Shown here piece after piece: positions 30,048 to 36,938 of a stretch of DNA of 64,000 nt (position 1 is its first letter; each line of letters begins with the position of its first letter). The translations under genes were made by a program, and so were the position numbers. The stretch comes from Bacteroidales bacterium. GTDB taxonomy: Bacteria; Bacteroidota; Bacteroidia; Bacteroidales; UBA932. The notes below the pieces were generated by a model. The model had not been told where the DNA came from. It saw only the letters and a list, made by a program, of their open reading frames with translations, and made no database searches. The stretch spans positions 18,250-82,249 of the forward strand of contig JAFZME010000118.1 of NCBI GenBank assembly GCA_017553405.1, in the 5' to 3' direction.

Positions 30048-31238
30048 TTACAGAGATTCGAGATAGGGCCTGAGCTCGGTCCACGGGTAATACGGGCCGC
30101 TTCCCAGAGCAGGTATCGAAACCTCTCGTTCATTGAATAAAAACTTCACAAGAACCTTCCTGCTGAACACATTCCGGTAAAACACGATCTGCAGGTTGGA
30201 GGCCATCGGCATCATCTCCGAGGCGTCCCACACTTCCCACGCCTTCTCGGGGGCCGACTCCATATCGTACCCTTCCAGTCCGATAAGCGTCATAAGGCCG
30301 GACAGGCCGCTGTCGTGGCCGAAATGAAGGTCCGCAGCCACGTCATTGCCTGCTACTGCGGCATCGGCCTTGGAGAGGATTTCATCGCGGAATATCCTCA
30401 CCATCGGCTTGCGGGCTTCCCAGTTCAAGGGGTTGCGGCCGTCCTCGGCGAAGATGATGCAGTTTCTGAAGCGCATAAGACCGGTCATTTCATCCTCGGT
30501 GAGATGGCTTTTCAAGTCCACATCAAGCCCCGCGCAGACCGCATCGCCGGCGCAGTCGAACAGCTTCATAAAGAAGCCTGTCCAGTCGGAAGAAAGCTCC
30601 CTCGCCGACGCCGGATCCGAGAATATGCGCTCAAAGAAAGGAGCATCGTCGAAGTACTCCGGGAACCGTGGATACAGATATTCCTTGCTGCGCCGGCGTA
30701 TCTCCATCAGTGCACGCGTCGTGTCGGGAGTGTTGAGCAGCTTGTAGTACTTGACTCCGGCGAGCATCTCGAACTGCAGGGCCGGAGCACAGCTGTTCAG
30801 CTCCTCACAGCAGTTCGCCATACTCACGATACAGCGGGGAAGCATACTGGAAATGCACTTGACATTCCTCCGGTGCCTTCTGGAGAAGACAGGTTTGAAA
30901 TGACGGTACATCCGCCGGGCGATATGCCTGTGCTCTATGGCTCCCGGAGGCGCAAGCTGGCCGTACATATCGTCGTGTCCGGCATCGAAGGCGACCATAT
31001 CGTCGCACAGCGCTTCGCCCTCGGCGGTAAGCATACCGCTTTCCCGCGCCTTGAGCAGAACGTTCAGCACGACCTCAACCTGCTCCCTTTCGGACATATA
31101 GCGGCTGCCGTGACGGCCATAATGGCTGATATAGAACGGCCGGTAGCCGAACGGAGCCCGAGTCTGAGAGTTTTCCTTGTCGGGATAGGGAGTAAACAGG
31201 CTGAGAAACAGCATAATGAAAAGACAGTGTCTCATCAC
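30048..31238 (-). CDS. Histidine acid phosphatase
   Basis: YISHYGRHGSRY, LHFGHD, MPMASNLQIVFY; hydrophobic N-terminus. Confidence 0.88.
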   Translation of the reverse strand: MMRHCLFIMLFLSLFTPYPDKENSQTRAPFGYRPFYISHYGRHGSRYMSEREQVEVVLNVLLKARESGMLTAEGEALCDDMVAFDAGHDDMYGQLAPPGAIEHRHIARRMYRHFKPVFSRRHRRNVKCISSMLPRCIVSMANCCEELNSCAPALQFEMLAGVKYYKLLNTPDTTRALMEIRRRSKEYLYPRFPEYFDDAPFFERIFSDPASARELSSDWTGFFMKLFDCAGDAVCAGLDVDLKSHLTEDEMTGLMRFRNCIIFAEDGRNPLNWEARKPMVRIFRDEILSKADAAVAGNDVAADLHFGHDSGLSGLMTLIGLEGYDMESAPEKAWEVWDASEMMPMASNLQIVFYRNVFSRKVLVKFLFNEREVSIPALGSGPYYPWTELRPYLESL

Positions 31239-32296
31239 TCGCCCCTGACTACGCCGTCCTCGCCCTTAAGCCTGGCGGCGACCTGTTGCACCGTCGCCTT
31301 ACCGGTCGTGTTGAGCTGCTGGATGGTGATGGACGACACGCAGCAGCCGAGCGTGGCCGCCTCGGTCTTCTCAAGGCCGAGGGAAAGGCCGAGCACGAAG
31401 CCGGCGGTGGTGGCGTCGCCCGCACCGACGATGTCGATGGGGCCCGTCACCTTGAACCCGGGCACGCGGACGGGCTCCTGCCCGAACACGATCATTCCCT
31501 TCTTGCCGCAGGTCACGAGCATCTCGCAGGCCTGCTTCTCGCCGGCGAGCTTGCCGTAGCGGATGATCTCGCCAAGGTCCTCCTTGTCTGCCGGCGGATT
31601 CTCGAAGAGGGAGAAGAGTTCAAGGTTGTTGCACTTGATGATCATATTGCGGTACTCGTTGGCGAAGGACCTGGAGTCCACATAGAAGATGGTGCCGTGG
31701 CTGTTGCCCGCCATCTCGTTGACCTGCTCGCGGATCCAGTCCGTGACCGCGCCCATATTGCGCTGATAGAACTGGTCGATGACGATGACCGCGTCGGCCC
31801 ATTCGAGGGAGGCCTCAAGATTTTCCATCATCTTGCGCTGGATGTCCATCGACGGCTCGACGAAATTTCTGAAGTCAAGCCTCTTCCACTCGAAATATGC
31901 GTTGTCATCCGCGGGATCGGCCCCGTCGGGCAGGCGCAGGATCTTCGTATAGGCGCAAGTGCACAGCGAATCGGTGCGGATCAGGTAGGACGTGTCGGCG
32001 CCGACGGCATTGAGGGCGTTCTCGAGTTCGAGACCTTCGCCGTCGTTGCCGAGGATGCCGATGCAACGCACGTTGGCGCCCAGGGAGCGCAGGTTGTTGG
32101 TTATGGTGCCGCCTGCGCCGGCCATCATTTTCTTCTTGTGGATACGGAAGGCGTTGTCGCCCGTCTCGGCCGAGACCTCGTCATTGGCCGGATTGCTGTA
32201 GAGATACTTGTCCAGTGCGTAATCGCCGAACACCACGATTTTGGCTTCGCCGGTGCGCGCAAGAGCGTCGATGATGTTGTTTACTTGGTTTGACAT
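31235..32296 (-). CDS. PfkB-family sugar kinase resembling the HldE/RfaE domain I heptose kinase
   Basis: IVVFGDYALDKY, AGAGGTITNNLRSLGA, GILGND, IDIVGAGDA; no nucleotidyltransferase domain. Confidence 0.85.
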   Translation of the reverse strand: MSNQVNNIIDALARTGEAKIVVFGDYALDKYLYSNPANDEVSAETGDNAFRIHKKKMMAGAGGTITNNLRSLGANVRCIGILGNDGEGLELENALNAVGADTSYLIRTDSLCTCAYTKILRLPDGADPADDNAYFEWKRLDFRNFVEPSMDIQRKMMENLEASLEWADAVIVIDQFYQRNMGAVTDWIREQVNEMAGNSHGTIFYVDSRSFANEYRNMIIKCNNLELFSLFENPPADKEDLGEIIRYGKLAGEKQACEMLVTCGKKGMIVFGQEPVRVPGFKVTGPIDIVGAGDATTAGFVLGLSLGLEKTEAATLGCCVSSITIQQLNTTGKATVQQVAARLKGEDGVVRGE

Positions 32297-35091: not shown

Positions 35092-35661
35092 TTACACAAA
35101 TTTATCCTGATTTTCCTTACACCAGCACACAAACAGATGAAGAATCATCATATGAAGGTCTTCTATACGTTCGTAACTGGTCATATCCGTCACAAAAGAG
35201 ACATCGGCGCCGCCACAGATCTTGCCGCCGCCGAAACCGGACAGGGCGATGATGGACGCCTTGTGCTCCTTCGCCACGGCGCACGCCTTGACAAGGTCGG
35301 GAGAATTCCCGCTGGCGCTGATGACAATAAGCACGTCGCCTTCCCGTACGGCGCTCTCCAGCTGGAAAGCGAAGATGTCCTCGAAGGAAAAATCGTTGCC
35401 GAGAGCCGTGAGCACCTCGGGATTGTCGCACAGGGAATTGATCCTGAAACGACGCTTCCCGTGGTTGACGGCATTCTTGCCGAAATCACACACAAAATGG
35501 TTGGACGAACCCGCACTTCCGCCATTGCCCGCCACGAAAACCTGGCGGTCCTTCTTCCAGACGTCGACGAGGATGTCCGTTGCCTTTTTGAATTCCGCCC
35601 GGTCTACTCCCTTGATGGCTTCGATAAGTTCGGAGCTGTATCTGCTTAACAAATCACTCAT
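35092..35661 (-). CDS. SIS-domain sugar-phosphate isomerase, GmhA (phosphoheptose isomerase)-like
   Basis: AGNGGSAGSSNHF, TALGNDFSFEDIF, EGDVLIVISASGNSPDLVKA, IEDLHMMILH. Confidence 0.88.
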   Translation of the reverse strand: MSDLLSRYSSELIEAIKGVDRAEFKKATDILVDVWKKDRQVFVAGNGGSAGSSNHFVCDFGKNAVNHGKRRFRINSLCDNPEVLTALGNDFSFEDIFAFQLESAVREGDVLIVISASGNSPDLVKACAVAKEHKASIIALSGFGGGKICGGADVSFVTDMTSYERIEDLHMMILHLFVCWCKENQDKFV

Positions 35662-36938
35662 ACGGCAAGTTTCTTATTAGGCCTGGAACCCCTGAGGGCG
35701 TACCAGATCAGGTAGATGAAGCAAAGTATGATGAGCCAGAAGCTGCTCACGAATCCCCACTTGTCGGAGATGGCGCCAAGCGCGATGAGGAGCACACCGC
35801 CGCCGACACACATCGTGTTGATGAGGCCGGAAGCAAGCGAAGTGTACTGCCCGAGGCCCTCGACGGCCATATTGAATATGGCGCCGGACATAACGGAGGT
35901 GCAGAGACCGCAGAGAATCATCAGGATGATGCTGACAGGCACCTGCTGGGCGAGCAGGGTGACGGTGATGGTCTTGGGAAGGAATATAGCCACTATCAGG
36001 AGCGCGATGGCCACGGCGCCCATAACGGACAGCATACTGCGGCTGGACACCTTGCCGCCGACCATTCCGCCGAGGATACGCCCGACGAGCATCAACAGCC
36101 AGTAGACTCCGCAAAGGGTACCCGCCACGCCGACAAGGATGCCGAGACCGCCCTGCTCAATGGGAGTTGCCATATAGAGGTTGGCGATGTTGGAAATACC
36201 CACCTCGGCTCCGACATAGACGAATATGCCGATCATACCGAAGACAAGGTTGCGGAAGCCGAGAGTCTTCCTGATGCCCACCAGCATCCCCTCCTCTTCC
36301 TTCTCGCCGGCAGCCGCGGCGGCCTTGGCCGCCTCAAGCTCGGGCTCGGGGATGTAGGAGATGAAGATGATAAGGAAGGCCAGCGCGAAGATGCCCATCG
36401 CAATGTAGAGTACGACATTGACATCCTTGATCTGCGTGTCGGCCGTCACTTCGCCTATCAGGTAGCCGCAGAGCATCGGCACGAGGGCCGCCGCCATCGA
36501 GTTGCAGCTGCCGCCGAACTGTACCAGCTGGTTGCCCCTGTTGCCGCCTCCGCCGAGCGTGTTGAGCATCGGCTGCACGAGCGTATTGAGCATACAGAGC
36601 GCGAATCCGGAGATAAGGGCGCCCAGCAGGTAAACCCAGTAGTTGCCGAACACGCCGGACAGGAAGGTGATGGTCACGCCGACAAGGCCCAGGGCGACCG
36701 CCTCAAGCGAGGTGATCTTGTAGCCCCTCTTCTTGAGTATGACGCCCGCCGGAATTCCGAATATCAGGTATGCGAAGAAATTCATAAAAACCCCGAGCTG
36801 GGAGATTGCGTTGGACGCCCCGAACTGGGCCTTCGCTATGATTCCCATAGGATTCTGCAGGCCCGAGACGAAAGACATCATCGCGAACAGCAGGAACATT
36901 ATGATAATCGCTGCCGTGTTTTTGCTTTTTCGTGTCAT
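35658..36938 (-). CDS. MFS sugar:H+ symporter, FucP/GluP family
   Basis: About 12 hydrophobic segments; FFAYLIFGIPAG, LNTLVQPML, GNQLVQFGGSCNS, IFVYVGAEVG. Confidence 0.88.
   Translation of the reverse strand: MTRKSKNTAAIIIMFLLFAMMSFVSGLQNPMGIIAKAQFGASNAISQLGVFMNFFAYLIFGIPAGVILKKRGYKITSLEAVALGLVGVTITFLSGVFGNYWVYLLGALISGFALCMLNTLVQPMLNTLGGGGNRGNQLVQFGGSCNSMAAALVPMLCGYLIGEVTADTQIKDVNVVLYIAMGIFALAFLIIFISYIPEPELEAAKAAAAAGEKEEEGMLVGIRKTLGFRNLVFGMIGIFVYVGAEVGISNIANLYMATPIEQGGLGILVGVAGTLCGVYWLLMLVGRILGGMVGGKVSSRSMLSVMGAVAIALLIVAIFLPKTITVTLLAQQVPVSIILMILCGLCTSVMSGAIFNMAVEGLGQYTSLASGLINTMCVGGGVLLIALGAISDKWGFVSSFWLIILCFIYLIWYALRGSRPNKKLAV

Follow-up and report, generated by a model that had tools for sequence, protein, structure and literature searches.

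What are enzymes that resemble the heptose branch of lipopolysaccharide (LPS) synthesis doing in an operon arranged for uptake? The question is raised by a 64-kb stretch of DNA from a Bacteroidales bacterium (contig JAFZME010000118.1, positions 18,250 to 82,249; hereafter the window), in which six minus-strand genes at 31235–36938 encode a sugar importer, a SIS isomerase, a HAD-superfamily protein, two paralogues of the GSU2086 family and a PfkB kinase. GmhA, HldE and GmhB make ADP-heptose from sedoheptulose-7-phosphate, and a preliminary description of this DNA had proposed that the cassette runs that route backwards. The part of the proposal that survives is the presence of heptose-pathway look-alikes wired for uptake; simple reversal is doubtful, since it would need two enzymes where five are present, the HAD protein is not of the GmhB type and the isomerase carries D65 and E172 and lacks R69.

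The answer offered here is graded. The cassette is probably a catabolic sugar-phosphate unit that serves an imported rare sugar. The chances appear evenly balanced for a more specific statement, namely that it is a unit of Clostridial origin, co-transcribed with a major facilitator superfamily (MFS) importer and a SusC/SusD pair, which consumes a rare, probably manno-configured seven-carbon aldose (a heptose), and the identification of the imported sugar as a heptose is itself held slightly more tentatively. A literature search found no described heptose catabolism, as had been supposed, nor any heptosidase or heptose salvage, and the observations below suggest that the cassette is an undescribed route for consuming a heptose-type sugar.

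A cassette within an uptake operon

The six open reading frames (ORFs) are intact, contiguous and tightly packed, and they occupy the middle of a 14-gene close-packed unit that runs from 49446 to 29487, with gaps of no more than 16 bp and several overlaps of 1–16 bp. In order, this unit encodes a GLUG lipoprotein, a DUF4886 lipoprotein, SusC, SusD, a lipoprotein with FN3, PKD and beta-propeller domains, a lipoprotein with an HxHxDH motif, the six cassette proteins, a histidine acid phosphatase and a small membrane protein, so that the cassette does lie inside a SusC/D operon as first described. The operon assignment takes gene spacing as its sole basis, and a scan of 27000–46900 for sigma-70 promoters and terminators returned no more sites than shuffled sequence. 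Among window ORFs of at least 250 aa no nucleotidyltransferase, short-chain dehydrogenase/reductase (SDR) epimerase or glycosyltransferase was found, which upholds the earlier observation that these functions, including an HldD-type epimerase, are missing.

The same gene order is repeated in another Bacteroidales metagenome-assembled genome (MAG), at locus L068, where ratios of nonsynonymous to synonymous divergence (dN/dS) are 0.046–0.15 over a synonymous divergence (dS) of 0.8–1.7. Given the shared order and the purifying selection, the six-gene arrangement is not a product of chance.

Importer, isomerase, HAD protein and kinase

The importer (35658–36938, 426 aa; MFS_1, 2.3e-19) had been called FucP-type, and its top NCBIfam matches, gluP (93.8 bits), NagP and FucP, are indeed FHS-family transporters, all scoring under their cut-offs. 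It is 91% identical to its counterpart in L068 (dN/dS 0.065), and a paralogue with 52% identity on contig C66 of the same genome adjoins a ROK protein.

The SIS protein (35092–35661, 189 aa) overlaps the importer gene by 4 bp. Its nearest curated SIS family is GmhA (TIGR00441, 101.6 bits, under the equivalog cut-off of 209.45), and its best matches in the PDB are the phosphoheptose isomerases 2i22 and 1tk9 (E ~1e-25), so the label GmhA-like is apt; the motifs given for it, HFVCD and IEDLH where E. coli GmhA has HFAEE and IQEIH, are also right. In E. coli GmhA numbering the protein retains H61, H180 and the S-x-S-G-x-S phosphate loop and carries the changes E65D, R69N, T120A and Q172E. We take H61, E65, Q172 and H180 of the E. 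coli enzyme to be catalytic or metal residues and R69 and T120 to be substrate residues (Taylor 2008; Harmer 2010). Window-type SIS proteins of Bacteroidales and Clostridia have in common the D for E65, the E for Q172, the loss of R69 and an A or G for T120. With its phosphate loop and both histidines kept, the window protein is likely to be a sugar-phosphate isomerase.

The HAD protein (34238–35080, 280 aa; Pfam Hydrolase/HAD) is a capped phosphotransferase that could be either a phosphomutase or a phosphatase; it bears the motif FDFDGT and matches HAD-IB/SerB-like families only weakly. The DFDGT reported for it in place of the GmhB DRDG is confirmed, and at 280 capped residues it is unlike GmhB and the other small, uncapped HAD-IIIA/PNK3P-type proteins with DRDG. 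Beta-phosphoglucomutases and HAD sugar phosphatases are inseparable by fold, and a sequence search of the PDB gave one marginal match that is uninformative as to phosphatase or mutase. Orthologues in Clostridial cassettes score 343–440 bits; the protein is fused to SIS in eight loci, and to PfkB in G416, a genome of the same genus.

The kinase (31235–32296, 353 aa; PfkB, 6.6e-25) overlaps the gene of the second GSU2086 paralogue by 16 bp. Its best-scoring kinase family in NCBIfam is rfaE_dom_I (TIGR02198, 118.3 bits, under the equivalog-domain cut-off of 345), which agrees with its description as a sugar or sugar-phosphate kinase like HldE domain I, and it is the best HldE-like match in the whole genome. 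Scores on other families are 64 bits for 1-PFK, 52 for ribokinase (TIGR02152, cut-off 300) and 37 for IolC. Fusions of SIS to HAD and of PfkB to HAD are what would be expected if the kinase, HAD and isomerase acted one after another.

The GSU2086 paralogues

Both remaining cassette proteins, A (33256–34236, 326 aa from the ATG at 34236) and B (32281–33243, 320 aa), score above the cut-off of 250 for NF052581, the GSU2086 family (343.7 and 352.9 bits, respectively). They are the only two family copies in the genome and are 51% identical to each other. The family takes its name from Geobacter GSU2086, located between hldE and gmhA and listed as a ‘hypothetical protein in sugar biosynthesis operon’ (PMC5585712); a literature search found no description of the function or reaction of the family.

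An AlphaFold model of paralogue B, fed with an alignment of 39 sequences, reached a pLDDT of 92, and its top Foldseek matches were the LOR/SDH protein 3c2q, the ornithine-cyclodeaminase (OCD) domain of AgrE/ArgZ and deoxyhypusine synthases (DHS), with TM scores of 0.5–0.56, 13–16% identity and a probability of 1.0. The ‘DHS-like’ of the preliminary description is thus borne out at the level of the fold, which groups with DHS and the ornithine cyclodeaminases. Those enzymes use a tightly bound nicotinamide-type cofactor, either NAD or the nickel-pincer dinucleotide, for a transient oxidation. GSU2086 proteins have the fold in common with them and differ in sequence (at the low identity just given), in possessing invariant residues of their own and in standing in a sugar-phosphate context instead of one of polyamines or ornithine.

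In the numbering of paralogue B, the family's invariant set includes H69, N94, D101, E103, E112, E128, E148, H180, D186, D206, N244, D262 and R276. Both window paralogues retain the conserved set, K237 and H299 included, with the exception that B has an asparagine for H189. Paralogue A carries the motif GCDTVHELP and keeps H189 and K237 (dN/dS 0.087 against L068), and B has the lowest dN/dS among the cassette genes (0.046).

Tandem pairs of GSU2086 genes occur in five loci: the window (32281–34236), L068 (9021–10954), L076 (9016–10978), L080 (1257–3223) and L063 of genome G416 (10850–12831). A tandem GSU2086 fusion protein (P0121) also exists. The upstream copy keeps K237 in all five pairs, together with H189 in the four window-type pairs; the downstream copy of the window-type pairs has lost either H189 (window and L068) or K237 (L076 and L080). 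The G416 pair has K237 in both copies and Y or F at position 189. This residue pattern and the tandem fusion suggest that the two copies assemble into a hetero-oligomer in which one subunit is complete and the other altered.

Ties of the family to heptose chemistry

In a scan of 1.8 billion representative proteins, the GSU2086 domain was found fused to SIS (P0127, P0133 and P0177), HAD (P0124, P0132 and P0171) and PfkB domains (P0137), to a cytidylyltransferase-like domain (P0125), and to an ARMT1-type phosphatase plus a cytidylyltransferase-like domain (P0154 and P0240), and the fusion partners are typed by NCBIfam as GmhA, HldE-I and HldE-II. The family is present above its cut-off in 31 of 401 genomes sampled from the window's phylum, all of them outside the window's class except the window's own genome. 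A glycosyltransferase family 9 (GT9) heptosyltransferase adjoins the GSU2086 gene in 19 of 20 extended loci from other classes of the phylum, in a neighbourhood of DUF3108, CdsA, BamA and envelope biogenesis. The fusions and the GT9 neighbourhoods tie the GSU2086 domain to heptose chemistry.

None of the 30 LPS-type carrier genomes tested has an HldD above the curated cut-off. This is compatible with, though no proof of, GSU2086 filling the epimerase-type step, and the context fits a family that would supply that missing step of LPS heptose synthesis; the alternative is that these organisms use D,D-heptose. In context, the wider family is mostly biosynthetic.

Origin and relatives of the window's clade

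The closest relatives of the window proteins (taken for paralogue B) are proteins of Clostridia, at 62–73% identity. A maximum-likelihood tree places both window paralogues inside a Bacillota clade and the LPS-type proteins in a separate clade with full support; paralogue B groups with L068, next to Congzhengia and Oscillospiraceae, and paralogue A sits on a long branch beside a Lachnospiraceae sequence. Only 1 of 36 other genomes sampled from the window's genus has the family. Judged by this nested position and the scarcity of carriers in the genus, the cassette is an accessory import, horizontally acquired and of Clostridial origin.

The preliminary description had noted that a cassette always found elsewhere with nucleotidyltransferases and glycosyltransferases would speak for biosynthesis. 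A neighbourhood survey of the clade covered 28 loci, 23 from GTDB species representatives and five from assemblies, carried by gut and rumen organisms of Bacillota, Bacteroidota and Planctomycetota. The core of HAD, GSU2086 and PfkB is nearly always intact, with the SIS gene adjacent or fused to HAD. An importer, either a CUT2-type sugar ATP-binding cassette (ABC) system or an MFS or SusC/D system, lies within 10 kb in 12 of the 28 and ROK proteins occur in 15; LacI, AraC/PocR or ROK-type regulators are common. A nucleotidyltransferase is present in a single locus, from Lachnospiraceae (L082/L099). The uptake proposal thus survives this test, and the catabolic wiring of the cassette is well supported.

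The exceptional locus (L099, identical to L082; 7244–18083) encodes a ribulose-phosphate 3-epimerase, a SIS protein, a GmhB-type HAD (191 aa, PNK3P-type), GSU2086 and a nucleotidyltransferase::PfkB fusion (HldE with its domain order reversed), together with two radical SAM/SPASM enzymes, a split transketolase and two methyltransferases. It is plainly a biosynthetic variant, with a product that is probably a heavily modified heptose nucleotide, and it differs from the catabolic form in the GmhB-type HAD and the fused HldE, two features that the window lacks.

Genome G416 carries a second, deeply diverged cassette (L063 on contig C29, 10667–18647), also in a polysaccharide utilization locus (PUL). 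Its order is MFS, SIS, a GH92 mannosidase, a PfkB::HAD fusion, two GSU2086 genes and LacI, and nearby are an EEP phosphodiesterase, a GLUG protein, SusC/D and, beside SusC, a homologue (87 bits) of the 182-aa membrane protein that ends the window's operon. The G416 SIS protein has the canonical GmhA motifs HFAEE, RIQEIH and TTSGTS.

Some further observations concern individual loci of the clade. In L067 an ADP-ribosylglycohydrolase and an IU_nuc_hydro protein follow directly after the SIS gene, and L067, L074 and L089 encode GFO_IDH_MocA and AP_endonuc_2 proteins; three tandem ADP-ribosylglycohydrolase paralogues occur in the window's genome outside the window, on contig C45 at about 5391–9827. 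A conserved protein of about 490 aa without a Pfam family lies between the AraC/PocR regulator and the ABC importer in three Clostridial loci (L007, 13182–14645; L070, 13105–14589; L009, 1–425). Between the window and the Clostridial loci the ROK regulators share only about 25% identity, and a common sensor is unsupported.

The surrounding polysaccharide utilization locus

The window holds three SusC/SusD pairs, one of which lies within the cassette's unit and heads its uptake part: SusC (41373–44540; Plug and CarboxypepD_reg) and SusD (39985–41376; SusD_RagB/SusD-like_3). Upstream, the unit begins with the GLUG-motif and DUF4886 (SGNH-fold) lipoproteins (44530–49446; gaps to neighbours of at most 6 bp), and between SusD and the cassette are the lipoprotein with two FN3 domains, a PKD domain and a PQQ-like beta-propeller (37991–39985) and the 343-aa HxHxDH lipoprotein (36955–37986). 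The last of these has a lipobox and the metallo-beta-lactamase-type motif THQHQDH, matches no Pfam or NCBIfam family and is conserved and collinear in L068; it is a candidate phosphodiesterase and may be a further one of the PUL. Downstream of the cassette, a branch 2 histidine acid phosphatase (30048–31238; His_Phos_2), collinear in L068, overlaps the kinase gene by 4 bp, and the final gene (29487–30035) encodes the 182-aa multi-pass membrane protein, which has no Pfam or NCBIfam match. Homologues of this protein occur in L068 as well as G416, and it travels with the cassette-PUL in Bacteroidales. All genes of the unit are on the minus strand.

Three further window genes of note lie outside the unit. 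A cytoplasmic GalM-like aldose 1-epimerase (28468–29526, plus strand; Aldose_epim, 1.9e-79; PRK11055, 268 bits against a cut-off of 240) is convergent with the end of the operon; a nucleoside-hydrolase-like protein (27039–28403, minus strand; IU_nuc_hydro, 3.4e-10) is predicted to be secreted from the signal peptide read in its sequence; and a ROK-family regulator (58744–59943, plus strand; ROK, 3.9e-51), NagC/Mlc-like over its full length though below the cut-off, is divergent from the third SusC.

The window encodes three ‘phosphodiester glycosidase’ proteins of the NAGPA type and, counting the one to which a NAGPA protein is fused, four histidine acid phosphatases (His_Phos_2); it also encodes an EEP-family enzyme, four DUF4886 SGNH-fold proteins, three GLUG-motif proteins, a non-specific nuclease and a purple-acid-phosphatase-like protein. 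DUF4886 is a family of unknown activity (PMC9487903). Among the window ORFs scanned there is no glycoside hydrolase (GH) or polysaccharide lyase Pfam family. This content of NAGPA proteins, phosphatases and EEP without GH suggests a phosphodiester-linked glycan rather than plainly LPS core, and the target of the PUL looks less like an ordinary polysaccharide than like a sugar-phosphate polymer of the teichoic-acid or capsular kind, or a phosphorylated core. The whole SusC/D locus seems to be organized for cleaving phosphodiesters, a phosphodiesterase and phosphatase character that the preliminary description had overlooked. Two large ORFs in the window (11770–13467 and 13458–15494) belong to no family.

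It is here that the strongest alternative arises, that the cassette is catabolic and serves some other rare sugar: a ribose or ribosyl derivative, a manno- or altro-hexose handled as in the allose operon, an alditol phosphate of the teichoic-acid type, or a cyclitol. The rus PULs (Glowacki et al.; 10.1101/574913) resemble the window in SusC/D, a permease, a PfkB kinase, a nucleoside-hydrolase-like enzyme, a ROK/LacI-type regulator and variable phosphatases and esterases, and the rus-like PULs, in about 70 configurations, bring together SusC/D, permease, PfkB kinases, nucleoside hydrolases, HAD, ROK, EEPase, BACON and acid phosphatases (10.1101/574913). This overlap in content is the basis of the alternative. 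It is favoured further by the PUL's NAGPA proteins, histidine acid phosphatases, EEP enzyme and nucleoside-hydrolase-like protein with no GH, by the four altered active-site positions of the SIS protein and the below-cut-off scores of all heptose-pathway matches, by the ADP-ribosylglycohydrolase, nucleoside hydrolase and GFO_IDH_MocA/AP_endonuc_2 genes of L067, L074 and L089, and by the pairing of the C66 importer paralogue with a ROK protein, as hexose importers do. However, the kinase scores far better on HldE-I (118 bits) than on ribokinase (52) or IolC (37). With 52 bits against a cut-off of 300 it is no ribokinase equivalog, and the rus core has neither a GmhA-like SIS nor a GSU2086 protein. 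No SIS family is closer to the SIS protein than GmhA, the GSU2086 fusions and the LPS-type neighbourhoods are all heptose-type, and the sister cassette of G416 combines canonical GmhA motifs with a GH92 enzyme, a family specific for manno-configured sugars. Another sugar is thus possible, and a less probable substrate than a heptose.

An inositol or phytate reading was also considered, given the four histidine acid phosphatases and the IolG/IolE-like neighbours in three loci. No IolD, IolB or IolJ was found in the annotated loci and the kinase matches IolC poorly, so this reading was rejected and is kept only among the other sugars above.

The host genome lacks a biosynthetic endgame

Enzymes of this kind could instead serve synthesis, or salvage for reuse, with sedoheptulose-7-phosphate or imported heptose being converted to heptose-1-phosphate that genes elsewhere would activate and build into the cell's own capsule or LPS. 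The isomerase, anomeric-type kinase and phosphatase follow the step order of ADP-heptose synthesis, and the mostly biosynthetic context of the wider GSU2086 family points the same way. In the window's genome (2.25 Mb, 93.6% complete), the only CTP_transf_like match is a protein of 135 aa, encoded on contig C8 within an unrelated capsule cluster; as a possible cytidylyl- or adenylyltransferase it scores practically the same on HldE-II (76 bits) as on TagD (74 bits), under the cut-off in both cases. Against this, tblastn of the genome found no GT9 heptosyltransferase, no HldE-II lies above the cut-off and neither the operon nor its surroundings encode a nucleotidyltransferase. Nor does the genome contain a canonical gmhA or hldE, the cassette genes being the best matches for both models. 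The HAD protein is not of the GmhB type, unlike that of the biosynthetic relative L082/L099, which also has the nucleotidyltransferase::PfkB HldE, and the cassette is co-transcribed with an importer, SusC/D and degradative enzymes, while other loci of the clade are linked to importers. A biosynthetic role is very improbable.

The comparison with ADP-L-glycero-beta-D-manno-heptose biosynthesis (GmhA, HldE or HldA plus HldC, GmhB and HldD) is instructive on both sides. The window's isomerase and kinase are nearest to GmhA and HldE-I, a HAD protein is present, and elsewhere GSU2086 travels with the genes of that pathway and is fused to them. The differences are the missing adenylyltransferase, GT9 and SDR epimerase, the scores under equivalog cut-offs, the capped 280-aa HAD and the wiring to an importer and SusC/D.

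A nickel-pincer cofactor is not a family-wide requirement

The fold of GSU2086 raises the question of its cofactor. LarC is the best predictor of nickel-pincer cofactor synthesis (PMC13524815), and in the phylum sample it was found in 40 of 401 genomes, made up of all 31 LPS-type carriers and 9 of the 369 genomes without the family. These carriers are phylogenetically clustered, so the count overstates the independence of the association, and it includes as positive one genome (G289) in which the LarC gene is split across two contigs. In two Oscillospiraceae loci, L070 (4463–8862, minus strand) and L071, larB, larC, larE, a 159-aa ORF and a WYL regulator lie directly upstream of the HAD–GSU2086–PfkB operon and divergent from it; no LarA or aldo-keto reductase is near these lar genes, and no other candidate user of the cofactor lies between.

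These associations admit the possibility that the window's cassette arrived recently by horizontal transfer and falls short of full function, its GSU2086 proteins needing a nickel-pincer cofactor that this genome cannot make. The LarC counts, the lar genes beside the cassette in L070 and L071, the lack of LarB and LarC in the window's genome and the single carrier among 36 others of the genus would all be consistent with it. However, the ORFs are intact and dN/dS is 0.05–0.15 over a dS of 0.8–1.7 against L068, a MAG that is itself LarC-negative. Of 23 genomes in the window's clade, eight have LarC and the other 15, which include a complete Limiplasma chromosome, lack it; LarC was also not found in G416, in G460 or in any of the pair-bearing genomes. 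Position 189 is histidine in all LPS-type proteins and in seven of the eight LarC-positive window-type genomes, and the asparagine variant occurs in 11 genomes, 10 of them without LarC; the window's two proteins represent one form each. Because H189N tracks the absence of LarC, it suggests adaptation to another cofactor. Strong purifying selection against L068 argues that the cassette works in genomes without LarC, presumably with NAD(P) or another cofactor, and an import short of full function is very improbable. Dependence of the whole family on the nickel-pincer cofactor was considered and fails for the window's genome and for the 15 clade genomes without LarC.

The LarB model matches all 14 control genomes, an outcome assumed to arise through PurE, and matches nothing in the window's genome at E <= 0.001. 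The organism either has no purE or carries it in the 6% of the genome that is unassembled.

A proposed pathway

The most economical scheme that uses all the parts would begin at the cell surface or in the periplasm, where phosphodiester glycosidases, phosphodiesterases and acid phosphatases of the PUL would free the sugar from a phosphodiester-linked bacterial glycan, and the MFS importer would bring the free sugar in. The mutarotase and an anomer-specific HldE-type kinase would then yield a sugar phosphate; a GalM-type mutarotase next to the operon fits such a kinase acting on a free aldose. The capped HAD would move or trim the phosphate, as a beta-phosphomutase or a bisphosphate phosphatase, the GSU2086 pair would fix the stereochemistry through transient oxidation (hydride shuttling) with a tightly bound nicotinamide-type cofactor, and the GmhA-like isomerase would deliver sedoheptulose-7-phosphate to the pentose phosphate pathway. 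Here we infer the identity of the sugar, the order of the steps, the epimerase role and the cofactor.

The design has familiar counterparts. The D-allose operon (alsRBACEK) joins import of a rare aldose, a kinase, an aldose–ketose isomerase and an epimerase on the way to a central ketose phosphate, and Leloir/beta-phosphoglucomutase logic combines a mutarotase, an anomeric kinase and a HAD-type beta-phosphomutase. The analogy is one of design only, as there is no homology to AlsE, RpiB, GalK or GalT.

Several observations weigh against a heptose-consuming cassette and are the reason for the caution with which it is stated. A kinase and a HAD phosphatase together are unusual in catabolism. Where a cassette enzyme has a counterpart in the heptose pathway, it scores below the equivalog cut-off of that counterpart, and with four of its substrate or metal residues changed the SIS protein may act on something other than heptose-7-phosphate or sedoheptulose-7-phosphate. 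Some related loci hint at ribosyl or cyclitol substrates through an ADP-ribosylglycohydrolase with a nucleoside hydrolase or a GFO/IolG-like protein with AP_endonuc_2. The PUL contains no enzyme known to cleave heptosides, and we know of no heptose in phosphodiester polymers of the kind that its content indicates. Finally, profile searches found neither LarB nor LarC in the window's genome, so the cofactor link seen elsewhere in the family does not extend here.

A bolder set of claims can be stacked upon the heptose reading: that this is the first catabolic route for bacterial heptoses, running free of nucleotides from heptose to sedoheptulose-7-phosphate and shared horizontally by gut anaerobes of three phyla; that its key epimerization of a heptose phosphate is carried out by GSU2086 as a new class of DHS/OCD-fold enzyme; that the same family stands in for the absent HldD in the LPS heptose synthesis of many non-enteric bacteria; that it comes in nickel-pincer and nickel-free (H189N) forms; and that the tandem pair is hetero-oligomeric. 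As a whole, this set is unlikely to hold.

What the cassette would mean

New here are a SusC/D context of the phosphodiesterase type, without glycosidases, for such a cassette; its clear Clostridial horizontal origin; its persistence under constraint in a genome that has neither a biosynthetic endgame nor LarB and LarC; and the pattern of H189, N189 and tandem pairs. Whatever the sugar turns out to be, there are things that need explanation: a very widespread and strongly conserved family, GSU2086, with no known reaction; a SusC/D locus for phosphodiester cleavage; and what may be a natural switch, on a single scaffold, between the nickel-pincer and the nicotinamide cofactor. Gram-negative LPS has heptoses among its signature sugars, and the innate immune system responds to ADP-heptose and its phosphates as signals. 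If the heptose reading is true, a salvage cassette shared by gut and rumen Bacteroidales, Clostridia and Planctomycetes would be a new link in the recycling of bacterial necromass, and it could affect the pool of immunostimulatory heptose metabolites.

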